Shown here piece by piece: positions 1-15,937 of a DNA stretch of 25,530 nucleotides. The notes under the pieces are model-generated. The model searched no databases, was not told the DNA's origin, and was given only the letters and a program-made list of their open reading frames with translations. Both the position numbers and the translations under genes were made by a program. The stretch's first letter is position 1. The number at the start of each line of letters is the position of its first letter. The stretch is from the IMG/VR virus record IMGVR_UViG_2630968343_000001, positions 1 through 25,530 of that record. One strand, given 5' to 3'. Source of the stretch: a virus.

Positions 1-207
1 ATGAGCTATATTTTTAACAAGAATCATAACCGGAGTCATACGCCAGATTGCCGGGCTGTTCGGATGATGAATTTTGATAAAAATGCCGAAACAGTGGAAG
101 AACCACGGGGCCACAGTTGCGGTTGGTGTGGTGCAGGTAAGATAGACAAAGTGGATCATCGTCTGGATGAATACAGTCAGAAACCATTAGCCCGGGAGGT
201 GGCCTAA
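1..207 (+). CDS. Small Cys/His zinc-binding protein resembling the Ada-type metal-binding module
   Basis: Motif N-x3-HTPDCRAVRMM...HSCGWC matches the H-x-P-x-C...C-x2-C pattern of Ada-like Zn-binding domains; coupled to next ORF via GAGGTGGCCTAAAATG. Confidence 0.5.
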   Translation: MSYIFNKNHNRSHTPDCRAVRMMNFDKNAETVEEPRGHSCGWCGAGKIDKVDHRLDEYSQKPLAREVA

Positions 208-208
208 A

Positions 209-583
209 ATGAAAGACCTTTTTGGTGGCCCTGACAGCATGCAGATGATAATGGAACAGTGCAGGAACAATCCAAGGATGGAAATCAGGAGCATGAAAGC
301 TCAAAATGAAATCTTCTGTGGATGTTTCGAGGACTACGATCTCCGTAGAATGAAATGGGACGGCCAGGAACTCTACTCCGGAGATACTGTCTATTTTAAG
401 GATCAGCATGGTTTTTTCTGGAAGGTGAAGATCTTCGTGGAACGTTTGGATCCTGATAGTGAAGAGAGTAGGATGGCCACGATAGAGGCAAATATCCGGA
501 ATCACTTAGCATTCCAGAAACAGCAGAGGAAAGCACAAAGTTGTGTTGATTGTGATGTGCCATTTGCAGAGGAGGGATTGTAA
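209..583 (+). CDS. Hypothetical early viral protein (124 aa) with C-terminal CxxC
   Basis: RBS GAGGTG upstream, 1-nt gap to previous stop, tightly packed operon. Confidence 0.75.
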   Translation: MKDLFGGPDSMQMIMEQCRNNPRMEIRSMKAQNEIFCGCFEDYDLRRMKWDGQELYSGDTVYFKDQHGFFWKVKIFVERLDPDSEESRMATIEANIRNHLAFQKQQRKAQSCVDCDVPFAEEGL

Positions 584-585
584 AA

Positions 586-876
586 ATGAATAGCAATTTG
601 ATTCTAGCAGAACACAACAAAGGCCTCCAAGTTTTTCCTATTTCTGAAACTGCAGCTGAAGTCCTTGATATGGAATATCGTGTGAACCTAAAGGAGTATC
701 GGGGTGAAGTATTGCTGGAAGCCAAAATAGGCCCTGGTCGGGACCTCTTGTCTTTCACAGAGCTTGGCAAATTCATGATTGAGGAAGAGGTTAAATTCAC
801 CTATGAGGCCGAATCTTATCTGTTAGAACTGCACGACTTTCAGAAGCTTTGTAAAATCTTGGAACAGGTGGTATAA
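586..876 (+). CDS. Hypothetical early viral protein (96 aa)
   Basis: RBS GGAGGG upstream, 2-nt gap to previous stop. Confidence 0.75.
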   Translation: MNSNLILAEHNKGLQVFPISETAAEVLDMEYRVNLKEYRGEVLLEAKIGPGRDLLSFTELGKFMIEEEVKFTYEAESYLLELHDFQKLCKILEQVV

Positions 877-880
877 CACA

Positions 881-1039
881 ATGAAACGGAGTTTATATCC
901 TAAAAGGGTGTCTGTTTGGAAGAATTTTTTATCCAAGTACAGGTATCAGGCCCTGGCCCTTTTAATCATTGTCATATTATTGATGGTGATTGGTGGAGTT
1001 CATAATCCAAGTGAACTGGAAGGAGTGTATGTTCAGTAG
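881..1039 (+). CDS. Small single-pass membrane protein (52 aa, not in ORF track): MKRSLYPKRVSVWKNFLSKYRYQALALLIIVILLMVIGGVHNPSELEGVYVQ
   Basis: ATG at 881, 4 nt after previous stop; GGTGG upstream; TAG at 1037-1039; basic N-terminus followed by a 16-residue hydrophobic stretch. Confidence 0.65.
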   Translation: MKRSLYPKRVSVWKNFLSKYRYQALALLIIVILLMVIGGVHNPSELEGVYVQ

Positions 1040-1042
1040 ACT

Positions 1043-1289
1043 TGCAAAGAATGTAGTAGTTAATTTGTGTGCACGTTGTCATTTTGAAAAAATGTATCTA
1101 AGCAAAAAATTAAAAACGGAGGAGAGAGAGTGTTTTCAGGAATAAACGATTTTACCGGCAAAAGTTTAATCAGTTTTTTTACTCCTTACTGTACTCTACT
1201 CTACTCTACTACTACTTACTTACATTCTAACTACTACTTAACTACTACTTTGTTTGCAGATTGCAAAGAATCTACTACTTTTCTTGCAG
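1043..1289. repeat. Three copies of an ~20-bp motif (consensus ACTACTACWTTBYTTGCA): one inverted at 1043-1063, two direct at 1240-1259 and 1270-1289; candidate origin iterons or operators
   Basis: Reverse complement of 1043-1063 (TTAACTACTACATTCTTTGCA) matches 1238-1258 (TTAACTACTACTTTGTTTGCA) at 19/21; 1240-1259 and 1270-1289 match at 17/20 with 30-bp spacing; palindrome TTTGCA-GAT-TGCAAA at 1253-1267. Confidence 0.75.
1180..1250 (+). repeat. Low-complexity CTACT/CTA tandem tract, almost G-free on the + strand
   Basis: TACTCCTTACTGTACTCTACTCTACTCTACTACTACTTACTTACATTCTAACTACTACTTAACTACTACTT read directly. Confidence 0.9.
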
Positions 1290-2028
1290 GGGTGATGGTC
1301 TGAAACCTCGCCAAAAACCTGTAAAAGTCCATGAAAGGGACACTGTAACAAACCGCCAGAAAAAGCTCCAATACATAGTAGACGACCCCAACAATGTCAC
1401 TGGTGAATTTGAAAAATTTGTACGCACTAAATACGGTTTCACCAAAGGAATAATTGGTAAAGAATTAATAGAAGCCCTAGAAAATCATCTAGCTTTACAT
1501 AACTTTGGACCATTCAGGAACAAATCATTAGACTTTACAGATTTTCTAGGACCTGCACACAAACATCTGAAATCAAATCATCAAACTCTTCTCAGTCACC
1601 TGGAAGATCTGTTCCAAGAAGGTGAAGTGATCAAATTCAAACAGATCCAGGATGTTATTAGAAGGGAGTTTGGCAGAACCGACAGAAGAACACATAAGAG
1701 TTATGTTGATGCCTTACGTTCAAGGGAACTATTAATTCAACCTGATGGGGTCAGGGATTATGAGTACTATTTCTTCAAGGAACAACCCCAAGCCCGGGAG
1801 AACCGTCCAACCCCTGTGGTTGATGTTCAAACCCGGTTAGTGTTTCCAGGAAATAAAGTTTTTGAACTTTTACCCGGACCAGGTACGACTTTTACGGTGC
1901 AGCGTTTACGGAAGATGACAACCTTAAAAGATGCAGATTTCCAGGCCGGTTTGAAACAGTTAACAGAATTGAAAATTATTAGAAATGTTGGAATAGGGAA
2001 ATTCCGAGTTAATGAAATAGAGGTGTAA
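1261..2028 (+). CDS. DNA-binding protein: N-terminal ribbon-helix-helix plus two winged-helix domains; candidate regulator or replication initiator. True start may be CTG at 1300
   Basis: KLQYIVDD...FEKFVRTKYGFTKGIIGKELIEALENHL is RHH-like; IKFKQIQDVIRREFGRTDRRTHKSYVDALRSRELL and FTVQRLRKMTTLKDADFQAGLKQLTELKIIRNVGIGKFRV are wHTH-like; GGTGA at 1291-1295 precedes in-frame CTG at 1300. Confidence 0.65.
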   Translation: MQRIYYFSCRGDGLKPRQKPVKVHERDTVTNRQKKLQYIVDDPNNVTGEFEKFVRTKYGFTKGIIGKELIEALENHLALHNFGPFRNKSLDFTDFLGPAHKHLKSNHQTLLSHLEDLFQEGEVIKFKQIQDVIRREFGRTDRRTHKSYVDALRSRELLIQPDGVRDYEYYFFKEQPQARENRPTPVVDVQTRLVFPGNKVFELLPGPGTTFTVQRLRKMTTLKDADFQAGLKQLTELKIIRNVGIGKFRVNEIEV

Positions 2029-2031
2029 AAA

Positions 2032-2832
2032 ATGGCTTTAACAACTGCACAACGAGGAAAAATTAGAGAAATAAAAGAAAAATACAAAAAAGAAGGATTA
2101 AAAGAAATTAAAGGCCGTGACGGTGTTTGGAGACCAACAGTAATTGGAGAATCATTCAAAGGCAAATATCTAGAATGTGTTCCAGACGCTGACAACTACC
2201 ACCGCAATAAATACATTTTTTCAGATGACAATGAGTTGAAAGATTCCAATGGCCGACTAGTTGGCTTGGATGGCCGTATAGCTCTTTTTGGAGGTGTGAC
2301 CCTGGATGACTCTATGGCCTGGATCCCAATTGGGGCCATGGTGGGGGTGATCTATTGTGGGGAACGACCTAACCCCGGATATAAGAGGGCTACAAAGCTG
2401 TTCACTGTGATGAGTGACAAGGAACTTGATGTTCCTATGAATATTTCCACACCCACTAAAAAGAAACCAGCAGCAGATTTGGCCATTGATGATGAAGCTG
2501 CCAGAGAATTAATCAAAGACTGCAAAACCTTCCTAGATAGTGAAGGGAAGAAAAACCCATCCATCCCAGAAATTGCAAATTACGCTGAGAAAATCCTCCA
2601 GGAAGACGATAAACCCGACCAACAATTACTGGACCAGGTTCACACTATACTGGCCCGGGACCTAATCGCTGAATGTGCTCTTTCTCTGACCAGTGACGAT
2701 AATCTTAACCCTTCAGAAGAAGAAGTGGCCGAGTGTGCTAAGAAAATCCTGGAAAACAAAAACCGTCCCTTATTGACTAAAGTTCAGTTGTTACTAGCGG
2801 ATATTGTGAAATCTAAAAAGAAAGAGGTGTAA
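2032..2832 (+). CDS. Putative OB-fold single-stranded DNA-binding protein with two C-terminal ~50-aa helical repeats
   Basis: WRPTVIGESFKGKY...IALFGGVTLDDSM...IGAMVGVIYCGE...KLFTV resembles the viral OB-fold family W.P...G..i.G.y...vwg...Ld..m....G..v.i.Y.G; tandem ARELIKDC...LA / ARDLIAEC...LA. Confidence 0.55.
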   Translation: MALTTAQRGKIREIKEKYKKEGLKEIKGRDGVWRPTVIGESFKGKYLECVPDADNYHRNKYIFSDDNELKDSNGRLVGLDGRIALFGGVTLDDSMAWIPIGAMVGVIYCGERPNPGYKRATKLFTVMSDKELDVPMNISTPTKKKPAADLAIDDEAARELIKDCKTFLDSEGKKNPSIPEIANYAEKILQEDDKPDQQLLDQVHTILARDLIAECALSLTSDDNLNPSEEEVAECAKKILENKNRPLLTKVQLLLADIVKSKKKEV

Positions 2833-2835
2833 AAA

Positions 2836-3276
2836 ATGGGAAAAAGACCACGTTGGAGTCCAGAGGAAAAAAAATTCTTCAACGAATGTGTTGACAAAGG
2901 AATGACAGATGCCCAAATTAGCAGTGAATTCCATATTAAAACCAAATTTGAAAAGGCTAAAGGGTTTCATATGCGCACTCCTGATGCTATGGGCCGCCGC
3001 CGCAGATTCTTAGCAATGGAACATCCACCAGTGGAAGGTAAACCTTTGAATCATAGAAGGTCCTGGTCACCAGAAGATGATGACCTTCTCAGAACATACA
3101 AAGACAGGGGAATCAGTAAGGAAGAAATGGCTGAAATTTTCAACCGAACAGAACGGGCCATAGATACTAGGATTCGGTACTTAGAAAACAAAGACACCAC
3201 TCCTTCTCCGGGGTTGCATCAGCTGAAAGGATTCTTTAATCATATTTTCCGGAGATTTGGCCATAATAGGGGTTGA
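2836..3276 (+). CDS. Protein with two Myb/SANT-like helix-turn-helix repeats; putative transcription regulator
   Basis: RWSPEEKKFFNECVDKGMTDAQIS and SWSPEDDDLLRTYKDRGISKEEMAEIFNRTERAIDTRIRYL (W-S/T-x-E-E/D-D-x-x-L motif twice); RBS GAGGTG. Confidence 0.7.
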   Translation: MGKRPRWSPEEKKFFNECVDKGMTDAQISSEFHIKTKFEKAKGFHMRTPDAMGRRRRFLAMEHPPVEGKPLNHRRSWSPEDDDLLRTYKDRGISKEEMAEIFNRTERAIDTRIRYLENKDTTPSPGLHQLKGFFNHIFRRFGHNRG

Positions 3277-3485
3277 TTATTGTTTTTCAACCGATCGAAT
3301 ATGCCACGGATCCAGACCTGGCTGGCATCTACATAATTTTTGATGATGGTGTCCTTTTACAGCTAGCTGTAAAGGGCACACATCAATTTTATGAAGTCAG
3401 TTATTATTTAGGTGAGTGGTTCGTGGATCGGGCCAAAAGGTTTTACGAGAAAATGATGTGTTCTGATGGGCATTATAATAAATGA
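3273..3485 (+). CDS. Hypothetical protein (70 aa)
   Basis: TTG start overlapping previous stop by 4 nt (TTGA); continues the early operon. Confidence 0.55.
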   Translation: MIIVFQPIEYATDPDLAGIYIIFDDGVLLQLAVKGTHQFYEVSYYLGEWFVDRAKRFYEKMMCSDGHYNK

Positions 3486-3583
3486 CTTGGAATATGTGCG
3501 TTTACTACCAAAAAATTCATAATCCAATTGATTATCAGTACAAAAAAGAAGAATTTAAAGGAATTATCTTAGAGATGTGCTAA
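3482..3583 (+). CDS. Possible 33-aa peptide MTWNMCVYYQKIHNPIDYQYKKEEFKGIILEMC
   Basis: ATGA overlap with previous stop suggests translational coupling; no recognisable domain. Confidence 0.3.
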   Translation: MTWNMCVYYQKIHNPIDYQYKKEEFKGIILEMC

Positions 3584-3618
3584 TTTGGGGTAATGCGGGA
3601 TTCTAATGGAGATCTTTA

Positions 3619-5064
3619 ATGGTTTATCATGCTCTATTTTGGCAAAAAACTTATATACGGTGGAACCAGATCGAATATAAACATTTTTATGGGTTAGTTC
3701 GTGGAGTGTGGTTACGTATGGTTATTACTAACAAAGAATATGAGTTTGCTTTTAATAACTGTCCTGATGCCATATTATTAACATTATCAGATGGGACAGT
3801 TTTATCAGCGAATCCGTCAGCTTGTGAACTTTTTGGTTACACTGAGGATGAATGGTGTGATTTGAAGAGATCAGATCTTGTGGATGCAACTGATTCTCGG
3901 ACATCTGTTTATCTTGAAGCAAGAAAAAAAGAGGGAGATGTAGAGGGTGAATTGATTTTCATCAAGAAAAATGGTGAAAAGTTCACAGGGCATATAAAAA
4001 GTGCTCTTAAACAACCAGAAAAAAGCTTAGGAAAAGCTTGTGTTATTATTAAAGATATAACTGAATTAAAACGTGCGGAAGAATCTTTAAAGAAAAATAA
4101 AGAAAGATATTACGACCTATTTTATAATGCACGTGTGGGAATATTTCGTTGTAGAATAAATAAAATGGAATTACTTGATGTTAACAAGAAAATAACTGAA
4201 CTGTCAGGTTATACCAAAGAAGAACTATTGAATGATGTCTCAATTGTCAAATTTCCTTATCCTGATGAAATTGATAATATTATGGGGAAATTAGAAGAAG
4301 AAGGTTTCATTGAGAATCATGAAGTCCATATCTTGGATAAAATGGGGGATATTAGAACAGCTTTGGTTTCATTCAAACTATATCCCGAAGAAGATTTTTT
4401 TGAGGGAACTGTAGTTGATATTACTAAAAGGAAAGAACTAGAACTAAAATTGCAAAAATCATTAGAAGAAAAAGAAATTTTACTAAAAGAGACACATCAC
4501 CGAGTTAAAAATAACTTAGCCATTATTTCAAGTATTATTAATCTGCAGTCCTCTTATTTTGACGACCCTGAAGCATTAAATGCTTTTAAAAATATCCAAG
4601 ATCGTGCCAATTCCATGTCCATGATTCATGAGAGGTTATACAAGTCTAAGGATTTAAAAAACATAAACTTTGGAGAATATTTAACCAGATTATGTAACAA
4701 TCTCTACAAAACTTACACACATTCAACCAACATCTCTTTAAAACTCAATATTGAAAATTTATCAGTGAAAAATGATGTTGCAGTCCCCTTAGGAATAATT
4801 GTCAATGAATTATTCACAAATTCATTAAAATACGCATTTCCTGATGAAAATGGAAATTTACAGGTAGATTTTAGAGGAAATAATGAAATGTATATGTTAA
4901 GTATAAAAGATGATGGTATTGGTTTACCTGAAGACTTTGGAATAGAAAAAACAAATTCACTAGGCTTAACACTGGTAAAAATTTTAACAGAACAGATAAA
5001 TGGTACTTTGGAACTTGAGTCTGAAAATGGAACAAAATGGTTGATAAAAATTCCAATTTCCTAA
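3619..5064 (+). CDS. Soluble PAS-PAS sensor histidine kinase, HisKA_2 / HATPase_c type; likely start at 3718 (MVITNKEYE)
   Basis: H-box LLKETHHRVKNNLAIISSIINLQ; N-box IIVNELFTNSLKYAF; G-boxes IKDDGIGLP and SLGLTLV; two PAS/PAC segments ending KDITELKRAE and DITKRKELE; no TM helix; GGAG upstream of ATG 3718. Confidence 0.93.
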   Translation: MVYHALFWQKTYIRWNQIEYKHFYGLVRGVWLRMVITNKEYEFAFNNCPDAILLTLSDGTVLSANPSACELFGYTEDEWCDLKRSDLVDATDSRTSVYLEARKKEGDVEGELIFIKKNGEKFTGHIKSALKQPEKSLGKACVIIKDITELKRAEESLKKNKERYYDLFYNARVGIFRCRINKMELLDVNKKITELSGYTKEELLNDVSIVKFPYPDEIDNIMGKLEEEGFIENHEVHILDKMGDIRTALVSFKLYPEEDFFEGTVVDITKRKELELKLQKSLEEKEILLKETHHRVKNNLAIISSIINLQSSYFDDPEALNAFKNIQDRANSMSMIHERLYKSKDLKNINFGEYLTRLCNNLYKTYTHSTNISLKLNIENLSVKNDVAVPLGIIVNELFTNSLKYAFPDENGNLQVDFRGNNEMYMLSIKDDGIGLPEDFGIEKTNSLGLTLVKILTEQINGTLELESENGTKWLIKIPIS

Positions 5065-7510: not shown

Positions 7511-8140
7511 ATGACCACCAAAAACACCCTAACCCCTAGCCTAACAGAAATGATAAAAAAAGATATGGTTAGAGGATACCGCAATGAAAATGGTGAAAAA
7601 GTATATCCAAAGCTTACAGAGGCTGCAGACTGGTATAATGTTAGTTATGATGGTCTTAAACAAAAAGCACGAAAATGGAACTGGAAGCAAAGACGTGAAG
7701 ATTACAAGCGCAAAGTGTCACTAAAAGTTGCTGAAAAAAAGGAAAATGAAGAAATTAGTGATCTTGAAGCTGAAGAGATCATAGTTGATAACATCAAATT
7801 TAACAATGCTGCAACTTTACTTCGCAGAGCTGCCACCAAGGAGATCCAAAAAATCCTTGATGGTGATCAGATCCTCAAGGTTTTAGATGATGGGACTATT
7901 ATTAAAGGTGTGAAAAGTGCAGGTTACCAGCTTATGAATTTGGGTAAGGCCCTGGAGTCTGCACAAAAAATCAGCAAGATAGCGGCCGGTGAACCTTCTG
8001 AGATCACTAAAAATGAGACAGATGTTAGAAGTGAAGGAAAATACACGGTTACTAGAAGTATAATTTGCAGTGAAGACCACATAAACCATGAAATAGAGGT
8101 TTTGAATGCCGCAAGCAAAGCCCAGGGATGTAATAAATGA
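7511..8140 (+). CDS. terS: Putative terminase small subunit
   Basis: Directly upstream of and overlapping terL; N-terminal HTH PKLTEAADWYNVSYDGLKQKARKWNWKQRR; helical oligomerisation region. Confidence 0.7.
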   Translation: MTTKNTLTPSLTEMIKKDMVRGYRNENGEKVYPKLTEAADWYNVSYDGLKQKARKWNWKQRREDYKRKVSLKVAEKKENEEISDLEAEEIIVDNIKFNNAATLLRRAATKEIQKILDGDQILKVLDDGTIIKGVKSAGYQLMNLGKALESAQKISKIAAGEPSEITKNETDVRSEGKYTVTRSIICSEDHINHEIEVLNAASKAQGCNK

Positions 8141-9674
8141 ACGTTTCCCATTAGGCCCTGGGACCTTTGCAATAGAAGCAAGTGAGGGCAGATGGAAACC
8201 ATTCCCTCACCTCATCCTTATAATTGAATTTTTAATGTATATGGTAGCCGGTCGATTCAACCGGCTCATGGTATTCTGCCCACCAAGGCATGGGAAAAGT
8301 TGGCTGATTAGTAAATATTTCTTAACATGGTTCCTTGGTAGTTTCCCAGACCTCCGTATAATATTAGCAACCCATAGGGCTTCTTTTAGTGCCAAATGGG
8401 GACGCATAAGTAAACAATTGTTAGAAAAGTATGGAAAGAAACTCTTTGTCAAAGAAGCCTTAACCGAAGATGGAGAACGCATACTACTTAAAAATGAAGT
8501 AGAGTTGGATAAATCCAGTAATGCAGCTTACCGATGGGATATTCAGGGCCATGATGGGGGCTTATTCACAGGAGGGATAGGTACAGGGCTTTTAGGAGAG
8601 GGGATGCATGGAGGGATCATAGATGACCCTACAAAAGGATTCACCAAAGCAAACCGCAAATCACACCAACAGGAATTAAATGATTGGTATTATACTGAAT
8701 TTAAAACTAGAGCTGATACTGATTTATCTACAGGTAAACCTCCTTGGATCTGTTACATTGCCCAAAGGCTTAATAGGAAAGACTTGGCCGGTCAGATATT
8801 ATATGGGCTGACTGAAGAGGACCCTGGAGAACCTCATATTGATGCCCGTGATGCTCTTAAAATATTGAGAAGTGGAGGCACAATTCCAAACGGGACATGG
8901 GTAGTATTAAACCTTCCAGCCTTAGCCGAGGAAAATGATCTTCTTGATAGAGCCCCTGGAGAGGCACTATGTAAACAAATTAAAAATGAAGAAGAACTGC
9001 ACCAAATCAAGAGAGAAATGGGCAGTTTCAGGTTTGAAGCACTCTACCAGGGGACTCCACGTGAAAGAGAAGGGAAAATTTTCAAATCAATCTGGTTTAA
9101 AGATGAACATGGAAACCTCCTTGAAGATCTATTTGTAGTAGGTTCAGAACTTAAAGTTAAAAATGAAATCAGATACTGGGATGCGGCTAGTAGTGGAGAG
9201 GAAGGAGATAAAACTGCCAGCCTCAAATCAACTTATGATAAACAAAGTAAACATCTTATTTTCAAAGGCCCACTGGTAAATTATCCCTACACAGCTAAAG
9301 GAGTGGTTGATAAGTTTTACCAGATAAGTAATGATGAACCTAACGCCCAGGCTATATTTGAACAGGAACCTGGAAGTGGAACAAAACTTTTAGTGGCACG
9401 ATTAAGGCAGGATAAACGTTTAAAACAGCGTAAAAAGATTCGATTAGATAAAGTTACTGAGAGTAAAGCAGACCGTTCATTTGATTTAGAAGTTTTATGT
9501 GAAGACCATAGAGTCCGCTTTGACAAAGAATCTCTAACAAAAAAAGATGTTGAAACTATCATAAATCAATGGATTGAATTCACAGGAGAGGAAGGCGGTG
9601 AAGACCACATTGTCGATGTCAGCACAGGTAGTGCAAGATGGTGGTTAAGGCCACGTAGGAAAGTGAGAGTATGA
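8106..9674 (+). CDS. terL: Terminase large subunit
   Basis: Walker A VFCPPRHGKS, Walker B GGIIDDP, motif QRLNRKDLAG, RNase H-like nuclease RYWDAAS...EQEPGSG...DHIVD; RBS GAGGT 5 nt before ATG 8106. Confidence 0.95.
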   Translation: MPQAKPRDVINERFPLGPGTFAIEASEGRWKPFPHLILIIEFLMYMVAGRFNRLMVFCPPRHGKSWLISKYFLTWFLGSFPDLRIILATHRASFSAKWGRISKQLLEKYGKKLFVKEALTEDGERILLKNEVELDKSSNAAYRWDIQGHDGGLFTGGIGTGLLGEGMHGGIIDDPTKGFTKANRKSHQQELNDWYYTEFKTRADTDLSTGKPPWICYIAQRLNRKDLAGQILYGLTEEDPGEPHIDARDALKILRSGGTIPNGTWVVLNLPALAEENDLLDRAPGEALCKQIKNEEELHQIKREMGSFRFEALYQGTPREREGKIFKSIWFKDEHGNLLEDLFVVGSELKVKNEIRYWDAASSGEEGDKTASLKSTYDKQSKHLIFKGPLVNYPYTAKGVVDKFYQISNDEPNAQAIFEQEPGSGTKLLVARLRQDKRLKQRKKIRLDKVTESKADRSFDLEVLCEDHRVRFDKESLTKKDVETIINQWIEFTGEEGGEDHIVDVSTGSARWWLRPRRKVRV

Positions 9675-11251
9675 AAAGAGAACCTGATGCTTTTATAGTC
9701 ACAAATGATGAAGGATGGGATGTTGTCACCACGGATGTCCTTGACAGATATGTCATCAAATCCCAGGAAAGTAGTGAAGGAGAAAGTAAACAGATAAAAG
9801 ATGACGGATGGAACTATGAAAACCTCCACGAACCACTTTATAATCCAGAACAGCTCACAGACCTACTAGAACGAAACACTTACCATGCTCAGTGTTGTGA
9901 TGTGGTGGCCAGGGAAAGTGGGGGCCTTGGTTTCAGCATAAGACCTGTGAGTGAAGAGGAAAATGTTAATGATGACCATAAACGAGTTTTAACTAAATTT
10001 TTCAAAAGTTTCAAAGTCAATGATGTGTTATATCGTAGGCAGTATGATCGACGTTCTATAGGTTATGGTGCTATAGAGATAATCCGAGAAGGAGGAAATA
10101 AGACCAGAATAACAAGTTTAGATCACATACCATCCCAAACACTCAGAAGGCACAAGGATGGTATAAGAGTCAAACAACAAGTGGGAAATAAAATAGTCTG
10201 GTTTGTATTATATGGTACCAACAAAGACCGTAATGGAAAGATTCTTTTTGATGTGAATTGTGAAAATGGAGACAAACATCCTGCAAATACCCTACCAGTT
10301 AAAAAATTAGCTAATGAAATATTATGGAGCTTAGATTACACTCCGAAATCACATTTTTATGGTATGCCTCGGATTGTTCCAGGAATTGGAGCTATTTATG
10401 GTGATATTAGCCGTAGAGATTACAATAGTTCATTCTTCAAAAACTATGGTATGCCTGCCTTTGCCGTGACAGTAACAGGGGATTTTGAAGATTATGATAA
10501 AGTTCCAGGAGATGAAGGTTATGATGAAACCAAAACCCTCCGATACAAAATATCACAGCAATTGAAAGAAGTTATCAAGAACCCTCACAGTGCGGTTACA
10601 ATACTCGTACCCAGTGAAGGTGAAGAAGGTAATGTTGAGGTTAAGATTCAACCATTGTCAATTGAAACTAAAGAAGCATCCTTCCGACTTTACCGTAAAG
10701 ATAACCGGGATGAAGTGCTAGCAACCCATAGAGTACCTGCTTACCGATTAGGTATAAATGAAACAGGTTCCCTGGGAGGGTCAAATAGCTCAGATGCAAA
10801 TAAAATATACAAAACTAGTGTACTTGAACCATTACAGGTAGATGACGAGTATGATATGAACTGGCTCATTAGAGAAGAGTTTGGTTTTACAGACTGCGAA
10901 TTCCAACTTAAAGAGATTGATATCAGTGATTTTGAGGGTGATGTTAACATAGCCGAAAAAATGTTCAATATGGCCAGTATCAAACCAAGACAGATAATAC
11001 AATATTTTGGTGAACGTTTTGGTCTTAAAGACGACCCGGAAAATCCGTACTTAGATGAATACTACTTGAATGGTCAGCCCCTGGACCTGGTTTGGAATCC
11101 TACTAATATTGAAGATCCACCTGGCACCTCTTCTGTTTTGGATGGTTTAGAAGGTTCAATAATTGAAAGCATGGAGGGGTCCAATGCTAGCAGTGAAAAC
11201 ACAGTTACAGCAGTCAAAACAGCTTTTAAACGTCTTAAAGCAAAATTATGA
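9671..11251 (+). CDS. Portal protein (PBSX/HK97-like)
   Basis: Follows terL with ATGA overlap; motifs FYGMPRI, FFKNYGMPAFAVTVTG, RDEVLATHRVPAYRLG; 526 aa. Confidence 0.9.
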   Translation: MKREPDAFIVTNDEGWDVVTTDVLDRYVIKSQESSEGESKQIKDDGWNYENLHEPLYNPEQLTDLLERNTYHAQCCDVVARESGGLGFSIRPVSEEENVNDDHKRVLTKFFKSFKVNDVLYRRQYDRRSIGYGAIEIIREGGNKTRITSLDHIPSQTLRRHKDGIRVKQQVGNKIVWFVLYGTNKDRNGKILFDVNCENGDKHPANTLPVKKLANEILWSLDYTPKSHFYGMPRIVPGIGAIYGDISRRDYNSSFFKNYGMPAFAVTVTGDFEDYDKVPGDEGYDETKTLRYKISQQLKEVIKNPHSAVTILVPSEGEEGNVEVKIQPLSIETKEASFRLYRKDNRDEVLATHRVPAYRLGINETGSLGGSNSSDANKIYKTSVLEPLQVDDEYDMNWLIREEFGFTDCEFQLKEIDISDFEGDVNIAEKMFNMASIKPRQIIQYFGERFGLKDDPENPYLDEYYLNGQPLDLVWNPTNIEDPPGTSSVLDGLEGSIIESMEGSNASSENTVTAVKTAFKRLKAKL

Positions 11252-12764
11252 TGATCGCTTAGCTGCTGAAACACAACTGGCCAATGAATTATCCTCTCTT
11301 TTCTTTGCAACTGAAAAACAAATCCTTAAAAATTTAAAATCTCACGATGAAATACCAGCTAATTTTTATTCCATTATATCACCCCTTGATGATTTACGGG
11401 TTGTTTACAGCCAACTAATAGCACAAATCAATGAAAAACATTTCATCCAGGGCTATGGTAGAAATGCAACATTGATTAAATTGATGGAGGCGGGATTTAA
11501 TCTGGATGTTGCAGCCAAAGCCCTTACTATTGACCGGGGAGATGATTTCTTTGGCATTGATGAAGCAACCCGTGAAAACATCAAAAACAAATCCTTCGTA
11601 GCATCACAAGGAGTGATGGACAGAGTAAACCAGGGAATCTCTAAAAATCTTGCCCAGAGTTACAATGATGGTGTTGGCATTGATAATGCCGCCCGGAGTT
11701 TACAACAAGAATTCAGCAAACTCAAAGGATATGAAGCCACTCGGATAGCAAGAACCGAAATAAACAGTGCACAGAATGAAGGAGCATTCCAGGCTTACTA
11801 TGACTTTGATATTAAATATCATCAATGGTGGACTGGTAGGGACGCACGGGTCCGAGACAGTCACCGGGCCATCCATGCCCAGATCACCAAGGTAGGATCC
11901 AAATTTACCAACGGCCTCACTAGACCTGGTGATCGCAGTGGGCCTAAGAAAGAATGGATCCATTGCCGGTGCACCACAATACCCTACCTTATGCCGCTAG
12001 GTATGATGGCTCCTCCAGGTGAGACTGCATTCTTTGAAAAGGACTTGATTCCAATACCTGGGTTTGATCAGGACATTATATCTTACCATCCTTATGATTC
12101 GCATAATCAAATTGTTAAAAGTAATATAAGACGAACTAGAGAATTAAGAACTGAATTAGGAAGAAAACAATACAATGGAACCATGTACAAACATGGAGAA
12201 ACTAGTAAAGACTATGTAACAATTTATAATGTGAAAGGGGACAGAAATCCTTTTATTTCTCAAGATGATGTTTATCAGCAGTATATGGATCTTCCTAAAA
12301 AGATAAGGGACAATGTTAAATCAATTTTCATTGAAAATAGCAGCATAATCAAAAGAGATGGGGAGGTTTTAGGATTTGCAAGACCTGAAAAAGGATGGTT
12401 TTGTTTACTGAAACCGTCAAATTATCCAAACCCCTCTCAATTAATTAAAGAACAAGTTTTCGCCCATGAAGCAGCTCATTTACTGGACACTAAGACTATT
12501 AAGTATGTACATTCTTATAGTAGGGAATACAGGCAAGCAGTAAGGGCGGATATGGTGGTGAATGGTGGTGAATTTCCTTCAAATTATGCGAAAAACTTTT
12601 TTATTAATAATTACGAAAATAACACTAGAGCTTCACTTAGGGAAGATTTCGCAGAATCGGTTCAATTCTATTTAAACCCTGAAACAGATCAGGGGATGCG
12701 ATTTAGAAGGTTGTTCCCTAATCGTGTTGAATATTTACGAAATTTGTTAGGTGAAATAGTATGA
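11184..12764 (+). CDS. MuF (Mu gpF / SPP1 gp7-like) head morphogenesis protein fused to a C-terminal zincin metallopeptidase domain
   Basis: MuF motifs RIARTEINSA, WWTGRDARVRDSH, PGD...HCRC; C-terminal FAHEAAHLLD (HExxH at 12465-12479) and REDFAESV; ATG 11184 follows GGAGGGG (ORF track starts at TTG 11163). Confidence 0.85.
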   Translation: MLAVKTQLQQSKQLLNVLKQNYDDRLAAETQLANELSSLFFATEKQILKNLKSHDEIPANFYSIISPLDDLRVVYSQLIAQINEKHFIQGYGRNATLIKLMEAGFNLDVAAKALTIDRGDDFFGIDEATRENIKNKSFVASQGVMDRVNQGISKNLAQSYNDGVGIDNAARSLQQEFSKLKGYEATRIARTEINSAQNEGAFQAYYDFDIKYHQWWTGRDARVRDSHRAIHAQITKVGSKFTNGLTRPGDRSGPKKEWIHCRCTTIPYLMPLGMMAPPGETAFFEKDLIPIPGFDQDIISYHPYDSHNQIVKSNIRRTRELRTELGRKQYNGTMYKHGETSKDYVTIYNVKGDRNPFISQDDVYQQYMDLPKKIRDNVKSIFIENSSIIKRDGEVLGFARPEKGWFCLLKPSNYPNPSQLIKEQVFAHEAAHLLDTKTIKYVHSYSREYRQAVRADMVVNGGEFPSNYAKNFFINNYENNTRASLREDFAESVQFYLNPETDQGMRFRRLFPNRVEYLRNLLGEIV

Positions 12765-13051
12765 TGATTAGACCTGGAGATGTTGTACAAGAAACCATTA
12801 AAATAGATGATGGTGGTCAAGAAATCATCAGTTATTTGGATAAAAATGGCGAATTTTCATTGAAATATTCATACAATGCAGTTAACATGCTCATTCAAAC
12901 TTATAATTCTGATGGTGTCCTAGTTAGTGAAGAACTTAAAGAAAATCCTTCCCGTGACAAATACGAAGAATCAGAACACTATGGGGATTGGATGAAAACT
13001 GTTAGAAAAATTAGTGAAGAAGATGAAAAAACAGGTTTGAATACCTTATAA
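12761..13051 (+). CDS. Small acidic protein coupled to MuF-peptidase; candidate immunity/inhibitor
   Basis: ATGA overlap with the MuF stop; RBS GGTGA; 96 aa; followed by a T-rich terminator-like tract. Confidence 0.55.
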   Translation: MMIRPGDVVQETIKIDDGGQEIISYLDKNGEFSLKYSYNAVNMLIQTYNSDGVLVSEELKENPSRDKYEESEHYGDWMKTVRKISEEDEKTGLNTL

Positions 13052-13131
13052 TTACTTTTTATATTTTATTTTGATTAAATTCCATTTTAATTAGCTTTAG
13101 CTATAAAACATTTTATAAGAGGTGATGACCT

Positions 13132-13278
13132 CTGAATTTTTCATTACTTTATCTCATTCTAGCCCTAGCTCTTTTAATCGTTACAATAGATTTAATGATT
13201 ATTCCATTTATCAAAGGGTTTAGAGAATCTATTGAACGTTATAAAGTTAAAAAAGAGTTAATAAAAAAATTCGAATAA
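13132..13278 (+). CDS. Small single-TM protein (48 aa, not in ORF track), CTG start: (M)NFSLLYLILALALLIVTIDLMIIPFIKGFRESIERYKVKKELIKKFE
   Basis: GAGGTGA at 13119-13125, 6 nt before CTG; TATA-like CTATAAAA at 13101-13108; hydrophobic N-terminus, Lys-rich tail. Confidence 0.55.
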   Translation: MNFSLLYLILALALLIVTIDLMIIPFIKGFRESIERYKVKKELIKKFE

Positions 13279-13292
13279 AAAAATTAAAAAAA

Positions 13293-13550
13293 TTATTCTT
13301 CTTCATTCTTTTTGAGAATATAATCTATTTTATTAATGAGATTGGATGCAATTTTGGACATTCCAGGACTAGTGCGTGGTACCGTACATTGGTTTAATGT
13401 GGTTTTATCCATCTTAAGGACTTCAATATCAATTTTTGAGACACTACGGTTGTCTTTCACACGTTTTATAGCAATATCCACTCTTGTCCTTATATCCAAT
13501 ATTAATATTTCATCTAAATTTTTTGGTTGAAAGCTAAATTCGATTGACAT
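13293..13550 (-). CDS. Hypothetical protein (85 aa), moron on the opposite strand
   Basis: RBS AGGGAG before ATG; minus-strand GAAAAATTTAATAA promoter-like element upstream; convergent with 13132-13278. Confidence 0.65.
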   Translation of the reverse strand: MSIEFSFQPKNLDEILILDIRTRVDIAIKRVKDNRSVSKIDIEVLKMDKTTLNQCTVPRTSPGMSKIASNLINKIDYILKKNEEE

Positions 13551-13663
13551 TTGACTCCCTCTATTTTTCTTAAAAATAATTAGGTGATTCTTAGGTTTCA
13601 GTGTTATTAAATTTTTCTAAACTATTATTGTCACTTTTGAATTAACAAATTGGAGGTGAAATT

Positions 13664-14941
13664 ATGGGAATATTCAGTTCTAAAGCAAGAGCTACAGCTC
13701 CTGGCAGTATCAAAAACCTTGAAGACCAGCTCAGAGGAGCAATCAACGACACATTCCGATCAGACCCCAACACTAAATACGACATCAGCACTTACCCCAT
13801 CGACATTATCCCCGACAAACCAATCAAATCCGGAAGTCTTATCATCGAAGATTACAGTTCCAGTAAAAACTACTCAGTACCATTTTCCACAGATGAAAAC
13901 GGAAATTACACTTTAGGCGAAAAAAAGGAAGTTAACAAAATTATGAACTATGAAGCTGTTAAATCAAGTGTTTTAGCGGTTGAAAAAGCAAAGGATCACG
14001 TTATGTTCACGGGAACAGCCCTTATTCCCGGAGAACCCGACTGTGATGCTACAAACGGTGAGGAGTTACTCACTGCTGAGAAAGTTGCAAAAATAGCACA
14101 TTCATTCATGGATTATCGAATTGTTGACAAAGAACACGAATTCCTGGTAACGAAGAAAAATATGGGGGACCCTGTGGAATCTTATCTACTTGATGCTCCT
14201 AAAGTGATGAAAAACATTAAAGGTGAAGAACGTGAATACCCTGAGGGCACATGGGTGGTTAAAAGCAAAATAACAGACCCTGAAATGATGAAAGCTGCAT
14301 TAAAAGGAGAAATAGCATACTCAGTTTCAGTGTTATCAGAAGAAGATGCTGATAAAGTCATGGCATCCATGAAAAACCGTGTTTTAATCAAGGATATTAA
14401 AAATCCAGTGGGATTCACTTTGTCATTAACAAAAAATCCATGTGTGGATAATTCTTGTAGTGTTAAAAGTGCTATGAAGGCCGGGCGTGCAATTTCAAAA
14501 GAAAATAAATCTGTACTTGAAAAAGCCAGGGACATAATAAACAGTCTGATTAATCAGGCTGATTCTGGCAGAAATGGAGGCGATAATGTGTCTGAAAAAA
14601 AAGAGAAGGATGAAAAAAAAGAATACGTCGAAAAATCCGATGTGGAAGATATGGTTAAAAAGGCAGTTAAAGAAGCAATGAATGATGAAAAAGAAGAATC
14701 AGCTTCTAAAAGTGTTCCTACTGAGTGTTCAAACTGCAAGGTAGCTGTGAAATCAACTGATAAATATTGCAGCAGCTGTGGAACTAAAATCAGCACTAAA
14801 GAAAAAAATGAAGAGGATGAAGAGGAAACCCCTGGAGGAGCTTCTAAATCTTTAAAACCTAATGGAGGGGACAAACCTACTCCTGCGGTTAAATCTTTTG
14901 AGGAAGAATTAGGCCGTGACCTTTACGGTTGTAAATCATAG
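13664..14941 (+). CDS. Prohead protease/scaffold, XkdF-like, with a C-terminal zinc ribbon
   Basis: TGTALIPGEPDCD...KIAHSFM...VDKEHE...PVESY...PEGTWVV...ALKGEIAYSVS is XkdF-like; charged scaffold tail; CSNC...YCSSCGTKI; RBS GGAGGTGA. Confidence 0.8.
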   Translation: MGIFSSKARATAPGSIKNLEDQLRGAINDTFRSDPNTKYDISTYPIDIIPDKPIKSGSLIIEDYSSSKNYSVPFSTDENGNYTLGEKKEVNKIMNYEAVKSSVLAVEKAKDHVMFTGTALIPGEPDCDATNGEELLTAEKVAKIAHSFMDYRIVDKEHEFLVTKKNMGDPVESYLLDAPKVMKNIKGEEREYPEGTWVVKSKITDPEMMKAALKGEIAYSVSVLSEEDADKVMASMKNRVLIKDIKNPVGFTLSLTKNPCVDNSCSVKSAMKAGRAISKENKSVLEKARDIINSLINQADSGRNGGDNVSEKKEKDEKKEYVEKSDVEDMVKKAVKEAMNDEKEESASKSVPTECSNCKVAVKSTDKYCSSCGTKISTKEKNEEDEEETPGGASKSLKPNGGDKPTPAVKSFEEELGRDLYGCKS

Positions 14942-14953
14942 GAGGCGATAAAA

Positions 14954-15937
14954 ATGACCCAAGATAATCAAACCATGTTAAACCAGCTTTCAGCAGCATT
15001 TAAGGATATAACTACAACTGATAAGTTAGGTGCAAGTATATTACAGCCTGGATATTTCAACAAGTATGTTCTTGCTGCAACTCGTGACAAAACCATACTT
15101 TCAGAGGCCCGGCTGGTTAAGATGACTGCTCAGGTTCAGAACATTGACCGAGTTGGTTTCAGTGGTAGGATACTTGAAAAGGCTGTGGAAAACCAGGAAG
15201 GAACTACTAAAACTCCTGAATTTGCACAAGAACAGCTTAAAGCTGAAGAATTCATTGCAACAGTTGGAATAACTGATAAATCGCTGCGAAGAAATGTTGA
15301 AGGTACTTCTTTCAACACTACCCTAGTATCTATGATGGGCCAGCAAGCAGGGGAGGATTGGGAAACCCTTGCAGTTGGTGGTGACAAAGATAAATATACT
15401 ACTGGTAGTTTACTGAAAAGCCAGGATGGTTGGATTAAAAAATCAACCAACAAAATTTACGGAACCGGAACTGGTAAAGCTTTTGATAAAGCTGGAACCG
15501 TTAAAGACATGATGAAAGCCATGTTAAAAAACTATCCTAGGAATTACTTGAAAAATAGATCATTCCTACGATTTTACTTGAACAGCGATCAGTTTGACAC
15601 CTACATTGATGAAGTTGGTGAAAGACCTACTGTTGCTGGTGACGATGCGGTCAGTAACAACGTAGCAAGGCCATACAAAGGAATACCTGTGCGTGAAGCA
15701 TTTGTTCTGAATGATAGTGAAATATTAGACACTACTAATGGATATGGTAATGTTTCTATGTTACATGACATTAGAAACATCGCATTTGGTATATTCTACA
15801 ATGTTACTATTGAACCAGATAGGATCCCTAAACTACGTAGAACTGATTATGTGCTAACTCAGGAAACTGACCAGGGATATGAAAACCCGGGTGTGAATGT
15901 GATTGCACTCGCAGATCAGACTAAACCTGCTGGATAA
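14954..15937 (+). CDS. Major capsid protein (HK97 fold)
   Basis: Follows the protease; 327 aa; GASILQP, ILSEARLVKM, NIAFGIFYNVTIEPDR; RBS GGAGG; oligo-T terminator downstream. Confidence 0.9.
   Translation: MTQDNQTMLNQLSAAFKDITTTDKLGASILQPGYFNKYVLAATRDKTILSEARLVKMTAQVQNIDRVGFSGRILEKAVENQEGTTKTPEFAQEQLKAEEFIATVGITDKSLRRNVEGTSFNTTLVSMMGQQAGEDWETLAVGGDKDKYTTGSLLKSQDGWIKKSTNKIYGTGTGKAFDKAGTVKDMMKAMLKNYPRNYLKNRSFLRFYLNSDQFDTYIDEVGERPTVAGDDAVSNNVARPYKGIPVREAFVLNDSEILDTTNGYGNVSMLHDIRNIAFGIFYNVTIEPDRIPKLRRTDYVLTQETDQGYENPGVNVIALADQTKPAG

Follow-up and report, generated by a model that had tools for sequence, protein, structure and literature searches.

An exchangeable zincin-type peptidase domain on a MuF head protein and its candidate neutralising partner in a Methanobacterium-type provirus

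The IMG/VR provirus record IMGVR_UViG_2630968343_000001 (25.5 kb, positions 1 to 25,530; hereafter the window, meaning this whole stretch) contains a standard head module according to its open reading frame (ORF) list and Pfam. In this module a MuF head protein extends into a C-terminal metallopeptidase-like domain and is followed directly by a small acidic gene, referred to here as the partner. A first-pass annotation of the bare sequence had proposed the two as a protease and its neutraliser, and both of its ORFs, 11163/11184–12764 (+) and 12761–13051 (+), were present in the ORF list. The features of the pair are the following.

11184–12764, + strand: MuF–peptidase fusion gene, 526 aa from the ATG at 11184 (ORF list, translation)
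11634–11981, + strand: MuF (SPP1 gp7-like) head morphogenesis domain, aa 151–266 (PF04233, E = 4.6e-13; TIGR01641; PHROG head-morphogenesis families)
12009–12068, + strand: junction motif PPGETAFFEKDLIPIPG, past which the C-termini of relatives diverge
12072–12761, + strand: predicted C-terminal zincin peptidase domain, aa 297–526, lethal factor/PPEP-1/MtfA-like fold
12465–12479, + strand: HEAAH zinc-binding/catalytic motif (H428, E429, H432), from family conservation
12585–12587, + strand: conserved Tyr468 (SNYA), at least 90% conserved
12642–12656, + strand: EDFAE motif (E487...E491), candidate third zinc ligand helix, from conservation and alignment to 9urd
12749–12754, + strand: Shine-Dalgarno-like AGGTGA, 6 nt 5' of the partner start, read from the sequence
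12761–13051, + strand: partner gene, 96 aa, isoelectric point (pI) 4.5, candidate cognate inhibitor/immunity protein

Alternative starts of the fusion gene lie at TTG 11163 and GTG 11193, and an identical protein in a public collection (P0004) begins at the GTG start. The MuF domain scored above the curated cut-offs of both models (PF04233, 50.3 against 29.6 bits; TIGR01641 of NCBIfam, matching aa 153–267, 44.9 against 39.65 bits). The residues HCRCTTIP, near which this domain had been proposed to end, were located at 11961–11984 (aa 260–267), and the two peptidase motifs that had been named, FAHEAAHLLD and REDFAESV, at 12459–12488 and 12639–12662. The reported extension of about 250 residues behind the MuF domain is real, although the domain proper is shorter, about 230 aa (297–526), and residues 271–296 form a linker, which relatives without the peptidase domain keep as well. 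The extension does lie in AT-richer DNA, with a GC content of 33.3% in the C-terminal domain and 32.0% in the partner gene compared with 42.1% in the N-terminal MuF part and 38.1% in the whole window; the peptidase/partner cassette is 5–6 GC points below the window average and 9–10 below the adjoining MuF core. AT-rich composition by itself was considered as proof of recent transfer and is only suggestive. The downstream ORF proved to be 96 aa, acidic and overlapping as described: its ATG (12761–12763) shares an ATGA with the TGA stop of the MuF gene (12762–12764), and the charges of the two products are opposite, the C-terminal domain being basic (pI 9.1). Among isolated viruses, Methanobacterium virus Drs3 is the nearest (47.5% identity across MuF residues 11–301), and the closest genomic loci are in Methanobacterium metagenome-assembled genomes (MAGs), and a Methanobacterium-type archaeal host is therefore well supported. 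Temperate carriage is indicated by the provirus record itself and by a 2.45-Mb contig encoding a protein identical to the fusion.

The last 256 residues of the fusion protein had no match in Pfam, PHROGs, NCBIfam or PDB sequences (phmmer). Pfam ATLF (PF07737) and Peptidase_M90 did not match the C-terminal domain at E values up to 10, and MPTase-PolyVal matched in Pfam neither the domain alone nor 10 family members. Searching 1.84 billion representatives exhaustively with HMMER gave only 26 relatives, mostly proteins of 520–560 aa with the domain at their C-terminus, several of which have the Pfam MuF domain. Family members share 23–67% identity, with the H, E and H of HEAAH at least 90% conserved across 25 of them and invariant in a closer set. 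The motifs conserved in the alignment are HExxHxxD, S.YA, EDFAES and FPNR, and [ED]DFAE was kept in all fusions examined. An M34-like set consisting of HExxH, a downstream Glu and a conserved Tyr is present, its ligands being assigned by motif analogy; from its position in the sequence we take Tyr468 to be the candidate transition-state-stabilising Tyr, by analogy with Y728 of lethal factor and Y178 of PPEP-1. When the family profile was compared with the PDB, the zinc metallohydrolase lipoprotein 9urd was matched at E = 6.7e-4 with HExxH, S.YA and EDF.E aligned (EDFAE aligning to EDFVE of 9urd), and PPEP-1/Zmp1 were matched weakly (E = 1–8).

The AlphaFold2 model of the C-terminal domain had a predicted local distance difference test (pLDDT) score of 91.8 and a predicted template modelling (pTM) score of 0.82. 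In VIA-align it superposed on the catalytic domain of anthrax lethal factor (4pkw; Z 11.9, root-mean-square deviation (rmsd) 4.2 Å, 178 residues aligned), on PPEP-1 (Z 11.5, rmsd 3.4 Å, 155 aligned) and, with a lower score, on MtfA (3khi, Z 9.2); overall, the lethal factor and PPEP-1 matches had Z scores of 11–12 over 155–180 residues at rmsd 3.3–4.3 Å. Foldseek gave a probability of 1.00 at an E value of only about 1e-3. Neighbours of the domain in the ESM Atlas carried ATLF, Peptidase_M90 or Peptidase_Mx1 at 0.95–0.96, and the best matches in BFVD were 'minor capsid' proteins of uncultured tailed phages (E = 4e-9). The C-terminal domain is thus predicted to adopt the zincin fold of lethal factor, PPEP and MtfA, with catalytic residues that look intact, in agreement with the HExxH metallopeptidase originally proposed. 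It is a fold-level relative and not a sequence member of the M34/ATLF and M90 families, and likeness to lethal factor at this level implies nothing about target or potency.

The C-termini of MuF proteins were surveyed by a search with the N-terminal 296 residues only, followed by Pfam and a custom hidden Markov model (HMM) of the peptidase domain, which yielded 31 relatives; a first scan of genome contigs using the MuF core had found no relatives. The peptidase domain was present in 12 of the 31 and an ADP-ribosyltransferase (ADPrib_exo_Tox, PF03496) in five, a few ended 29–30 residues past the junction, and the remainder had long unrecognised extensions, for example the 685-aa protein of Methanobrevibacter ruminantium M1. 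The junction, PPG..F.E.DLIPIPG in consensus, precedes peptidase, ADP-ribosyltransferase, short and unrecognised C-termini alike. In P0063 the MuF part is 79% identical to that of the window and the junction PPGATTFFEKDLIPIPG is shared, yet an ADP-ribosyltransferase follows; likewise, PPGLTEFTE.QL.DIPG is common to P0071 and P0068/P0072/P0076, and only P0071 has the peptidase. A Selenomonadales MAG (L024:1200–5400) has at least four cassettes in tandem, each starting with a MuF end (PLHPRCRCT...SGSRISEGRK), and the peptidase is among them; polymorphic toxin loci classically arrange their orphan modules in this way. Small ORFs stand behind each of these cassettes, two of them (92 and 96 aa) alike. 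The swapping of C-termini among relatives that the first-pass annotation had anticipated was therefore found, and the MuF C-terminus is polymorphic, with modules exchanged at a conserved junction.

Longer MuF–peptidase fusions also occur (P0014, P0073 and P0079). The metagenomic P0014 (905 aa) has MuF, the peptidase domain and about 350 further residues in which STS and ExE-like motifs were seen by eye; the resulting likeness to an ADP-ribosyltransferase was not confirmed by Pfam and was set aside. In a Bacilli MAG (L025:1–4929), the peptidase domain occupies residues 909–1092 of a protein that is at least 1541 aa long, and the 91-aa ORF behind it contains ENGNLISE, loosely like the partner motif, and had no match to the partner HMM.

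The partner belongs to a conserved family of 28 clusters in which the ENP motif does not vary. Ten archaeal-type loci were checked, some starting from the peptidase gene and others from the partner, and in each of them the partner lies 3' of the peptidase fusion. From the peptidase side, a partner homologue was the next gene in L001, L002, L004, L009, L011 and L013, either as a single unit of 87–96 aa or as a tandem duplication of 163–164 aa; from divergent partner homologues, the upstream gene always encoded a MuF protein of 535–575 aa with HExxH and EDFA[ED]. Tandem partners (162–171 aa) with ENP in both halves beside a single-copy peptidase were seen in L011 (5674–6168), L013 (2247–2738), L014, L016, L018 and L019, which are rumen and other metagenome lineages. 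In L006 and L007 (MuF core 68% identical) and in Drs3, the MuF protein is short, ending just past the junction, and the partner gene is missing; the protease gene comes next after MuF with no partner ORF between (a gap of 85 nt in Drs3). Because the partner accompanies the peptidase and both are absent from these three, the domain and the partner form one presence/absence cassette. The AlphaFold2 model of the partner (pLDDT 91.6) consists of two beta-hairpins (four strands) and a C-terminal helix. A by-eye impression of a MORN-variant/YwqK-type immunity protein was unsupported by the fold and ESM Atlas searches.

Relative to L001 and L004, the window is 86% identical in the portal, 89–90% in the MuF core and 93–94% in the major capsid protein, and 51% in the C-terminal domain and 58–62% in the partner; relative to L002, the C-terminal domain and the partner are both 69% identical. 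The ratio of nonsynonymous to synonymous substitution rates (dN/dS) was 0.22–0.29 for the C-terminal domain and 0.26–0.37 for the partner, compared with 0.05–0.11 for portal, MuF core and capsid. Both are under purifying selection and evolve 3–5 times faster than the structural genes. Synonymous divergence (dS) in the C-terminal domain is 1.3–1.4 against 0.7–0.9 in neighbouring genes, a level near saturation at which allele exchange and faster evolution are inseparable. Across 11 distinct loci, and taken descriptively, identity of the C-terminal domain and of the partner were correlated (Spearman rho 0.68; partial 0.66 given the MuF core), while the partial correlation between MuF core and partner given the C-terminal domain was 0.02. 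The downstream gene, whose co-variation had been put forward as a test of the pairing, is thus present only with the peptidase domain and tracks that domain and not the MuF core.

Partner genes were also found away from the virus. Four host loci (L031, L032, L033 and L036) have an intact partner ORF beside a truncated or decayed peptidase remnant, abutting CRISPR repeats. L031 and L032 are two Methanobacterium MAGs that hold pieces of the cassette only and were found by genome search with the peptidase domain. In L032 (Methanobacterium sp. OMB003 MAG, JAVSLV010000043.1, 7036–8198), seven 37-nt repeats with 77–89 nt spacing are followed by a 594-nt insert, consisting of the last ~250 nt of the peptidase domain and a complete partner ORF, and then by a terminal, slightly degenerate repeat. 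In L031 (Methanobacterium sp. UBA410 MAG, 1–4900) there are fourteen 30-nt repeats with 67-nt spacing, and repeat copies at 1520–1550 and 4859–4889 flank a cassette segment (1551–4859) with two peptidase–partner units: a frameshifted peptidase domain that starts just past the MuF junction, with an intact partner, and then a further piece of peptidase interrupted by stop codons, again with an intact partner. The same layout is repeated in three separate metagenome assemblies (L037–L039), which argues against chimeric assembly. In L033 (1291–6291 of a 137-kb host contig), 58 repeats with 63–69 nt spacing lie downstream of cas2, and the last repeat directly abuts the peptidase domain from HExxH onward with an intact partner, the host Lon gene being next. 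In L036 (600–3224), a decayed remnant with stop codons and EDFAES changed to EHFPES, together with an intact partner, stands between two 37-nt repeats in opposite orientation; only three repeat copies were seen. The regularly spaced repeats of L031, L032 and L033, with cas2 nearby at L033, mark these as CRISPR arrays. As side observations, the L031 segment also has a reverse-strand 115-aa ORF, L032 has a type III restriction–modification methylase-like gene downstream and several spacers that are near-duplicates of one another, and L036 carries an amine-oxidase gene between two of its repeats, beside a PemK toxin gene.

The two MAGs gave no match to the MuF core or the capsid protein and none to the portal above its family cut-off, and nothing else in 19.5 kb of virus sequence was matched, with the proviso that MAGs can lose proviruses. 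The left boundary of the orphan segments varies from locus to locus and the partner is complete each time. The partners of L032 and L036 share 91% nucleotide identity with a dN/dS of 0.06; identity of the neighbouring remnants is 75%, and indels and stops occur in them. Since the partner is always complete and is conserved between L032 and L036 while the remnant decays, we read the partner alone as being under selection in host genomes, as expected of an antidote. Intact orphan partners in CRISPR arrays suggest that the partner neutralises the protease.

How these genes came to lie in the arrays can be put forward tentatively. Methanobacterium hosts may repeatedly have captured the antidote gene together with a dead peptidase stub as gene-sized 'spacers' at or near CRISPR array ends, by spacer–protospacer recombination or aberrant integration, and may have kept them under selection as an innate shield against the virion-injected peptidase, possibly transcribed with the array; we regard this as a possibility rather less probable than not. 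The spacers of three arrays had no match beyond chance to the window and its relatives, and neither repeat type was found in the window, and for these reasons a spacer–protospacer recombination route or a virus-borne repeat is not supported. A full-text literature search of incomplete coverage returned no precedent for CRISPR-embedded orphan partner genes.

Taken together, the data point to a MuF head protein with a swappable zinc endopeptidase effector and a cognate neutralising 96-aa partner, delivered by the virion into the next host, an account that we consider fairly probable. The capsid-internal MuF protein would bear an exchangeable C-terminal effector module, here an active-looking zinc endopeptidase, and the translationally coupled acidic protein would be its cognate immunity-type inhibitor. 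The partner would keep the peptidase harmless during synthesis in the producing or lysogenic cell and may shield carriers from peptidase brought by related virions. Packaged with MuF in the head and released with the DNA into the next cell, the peptidase would cleave a cytoplasmic protein of the host or of a rival element, and the fast-evolving cassette would be gained, lost and exchanged at the junction. What the comparisons and models show is the identity and fold of the domain, the conservation of its catalytic residues, the polymorphism of MuF C-termini, the strict linkage and joint absence of the two genes, their co-variation and rapid evolution, and the retention of orphan partners in hosts; packaging and ejection, proteolysis, toxicity, physical inhibition and the target are inferred. 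Independent support for a neutralising role comes from the intact orphan partners beside decayed peptidase remnants in hosts, and the protease/neutraliser interpretation of the first-pass annotation is largely supported by these sequence comparisons.

Several points weigh against this account. The pairs among the 11 loci are non-independent, which makes the co-variation statistic descriptive, and the dN/dS values below 1 give no positive selection at the whole-gene level for either the C-terminal domain or the partner. Bacterial members of the peptidase family (L023–L025) have no detectable homologue of this partner. The partner itself belongs to no Pfam, PHROG or NCBIfam family, its model matched no solved fold credibly (best Foldseek E = 0.03, best VIA-align Z = 3.8), and the ESM Atlas offered sub-threshold leads only, including a MORN_2 cluster at 0.78. 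The orphan loci were found by searching with the cassette itself, so other viral genes may be captured as often; the same arrays have other gene-sized inserts between repeats, namely a 162-aa predicted membrane protein (L031, 898–1520) and the amine oxidase of L036, and the orphan copies could be recombination leftovers at CRISPR arrays. Binding of the partner to the C-terminal domain and physical inhibition of the peptidase are presumed, and ejection of MuF into an archaeal host is taken by analogy from bacterial phages (cited in PMC5512222 and PMC5576092).

Other roles for the two genes were weighed, and most are disfavoured, since hosts keep orphan partners and heads can be assembled without the cassette. 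The partner could be a chaperone or packaging adaptor that assists folding or prohead loading of the bulky C-terminal domain and not an inhibitor, with the peptidase still a virion-delivered effector. Strict linkage and co-variation would suit any obligate binding partner and translational coupling would suit a stoichiometric chaperone, but the retention by hosts of intact, conserved partners beside decayed peptidase, without the rest of the virus, is left unexplained, and we judge this role rather unlikely. We think it unlikely, too, that the zincin is a processing (releasing) peptidase acting on the MuF fusion or on head proteins in maturation or ejection instead of a host-directed effector. 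Many MPTase domains in phage polyvalent proteins have been argued to process the polypeptide (Iyer et al., PMC5512222), and the same domain occurs inside the L025 protein of at least 1541 aa and the longer MuF fusions; however, the 526-aa window protein has nothing past MuF to release, the virus already encodes an XkdF-type prohead protease, close relatives and Drs3 assemble heads without the peptidase domain, and a fast-evolving cognate partner and host orphan partners would be unexpected for housekeeping maturation.

An entry function appears very unlikely, in which the domain would cut pseudomurein or S-layer peptide links as internal head proteins exit via the tail, much as internal proteins ejected by some bacterial phages carry domains that degrade the wall. 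Viruses of Methanobacteriales must cross pseudomurein and the domain is carried on a protein expected to be ejected, but none of the searches pointed to such a function; against this, the same domain family is found in Firmicutes prophages and in a polymorphic-cassette locus, a co-expressed cytoplasmic partner would be needless, and family searches gave no similarity to known pseudomurein endoisopeptidases or wall-binding modules. That the extension is a decaying or catalytically dead passenger followed by an unrelated small structural gene deserves hardly any credence, even with neither protein matching a curated family, given catalytic residues conserved across a family at 23–67% identity, purifying selection on both genes, and a partner that is conserved, sometimes tandemly duplicated and tied to the peptidase domain.

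The MuF gene is placed in a packaging module with the order large terminase, portal, MuF, then XkdF-type protease and major capsid protein.

8106–9674: large terminase, head module
9671–11251, + strand: portal gene (Pfam Phage_portal, E = 6e-18), directly 5' of the MuF gene
13664–14941, + strand: XkdF-type prohead protease/scaffold gene (Pfam Peptidase_S78_2, E = 2.6e-17)
14954–15937: major capsid protein gene, head module

The large terminase is just 40% identical to that of L001/L004, whose portal, MuF core and capsid are 86–94% identical to those of the window; this packaging enzyme has been swapped as a module relative to L001/L004. The XkdF-type protease has about 90 more N-terminal residues than the L001/L004 protease. 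Between the partner and protease genes lies a 612-nt intergenic stretch (13052–13663, 26% GC) with an 85-aa reverse-strand ORF (13293–13550), and further upstream the provirus encodes a complete PAS-PAS HisKA_2 histidine kinase (3619–5064, Pfam).

The MuF polymorphic toxins of temperate bacteriophages (Jamet et al. 2017, PMC5576092) and the MuF system (Zhang et al. 2012, PMC3482391) are the closest known counterparts. Among 191 putative MuF toxins, 20% have a metallopeptidase domain, ADP-ribosyltransferases are frequent, and a small ORF of <150 aa stands behind 89% (PMC5576092); MuF metallopeptidase toxins followed by small ORFs in bacterial prophages, as stated in the first-pass annotation, are thus described. 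The window shares with them the N-terminal MuF domain beside the portal, variable toxin-type C-termini, a small ORF behind and prophage carriage. It differs in its host, a methanogenic archaeon, in peptidase and partner families outside Pfam, PHROGs and NCBIfam, and in its defined junction motif and orphan partners in host CRISPR arrays. The first-pass annotation knew of no characterised case in a methanogen virus: the analysed archaeal-virus case is indeed new, but the phyletic range given for the MuF system in 2012 already included Euryarchaeota (PMC3482391).

Polyvalent proteins, for which packaging and injection are predicted, use MuF and MPTase as hub domains, and the zincin-like MPTase has been unified with lethal factor through profile comparison (Iyer et al. 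2017, PMC5512222). Relatives of the window protein resemble them in combining MuF and peptidase with further C-terminal sequence and in the protein of at least 1541 aa. The window protein, in contrast, has two domains only and no Pfam match for its C-terminal domain, and polyvalent proteins are not described with cognate immunity genes. With M34 peptidases (lethal factor, PPEP-1/Zmp1) and MtfA (M90) the domain shares the fold, HExxH followed by a conserved Tyr, and an ExxAE-type helix; unlike them, it has 12–18% sequence identity to these proteins, an extra N-terminal beta-rich part, fusion to a phage head protein and a dedicated partner. Motifs also align in the profile match to the Bacteroidota substrate import-associated zinc metallohydrolase lipoproteins (9urd, 4l7a; Peptidase_Mx1-like), which are secreted bacterial lipoproteins without phage context. 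As in the orphan modules of contact-dependent inhibition (CDI) and Rhs systems, a demarcation motif precedes the variable toxin domain, and truncated tips with intact immunity genes are retained elsewhere; here, however, the orphans abut CRISPR repeats in archaeal chromosomes without a full-length toxin gene and are not arrayed 3' of the main toxin gene.

To our knowledge, very little is known about how viruses take over, or come into conflict with, methanogen hosts. The architecture and logic are already known from bacteria, and the window holds the archaeal version of the MuF polymorphic toxin; what is new is the analysis of a case from an archaeal virus, two protein families not yet curated, a defined junction for exchange, co-variation measured quantitatively, and orphan partners embedded in CRISPR arrays. 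The concept, analysed so far in bacteria, is thereby extended to archaeal viruses with a clear module-exchange junction, and the locus defines two families without a curated model, the lethal-factor-fold peptidase and the partner. It offers a directly testable effector/antidote pair of a Methanobacterium provirus, and finding the peptidase substrate might uncover a defence or regulatory protein of archaea that viruses have to disable. The position of orphan partners between CRISPR repeats suggests recruitment of viral antidotes by hosts. Confirmation of the capture mechanism would mean that CRISPR arrays can take in whole genes. If hosts also keep the captured genes as a shield, a protein-based immunity gene would be housed within an adaptive immunity locus, and this would be the first documented polymorphic toxin/immunity conflict between an archaeal virus and its host.

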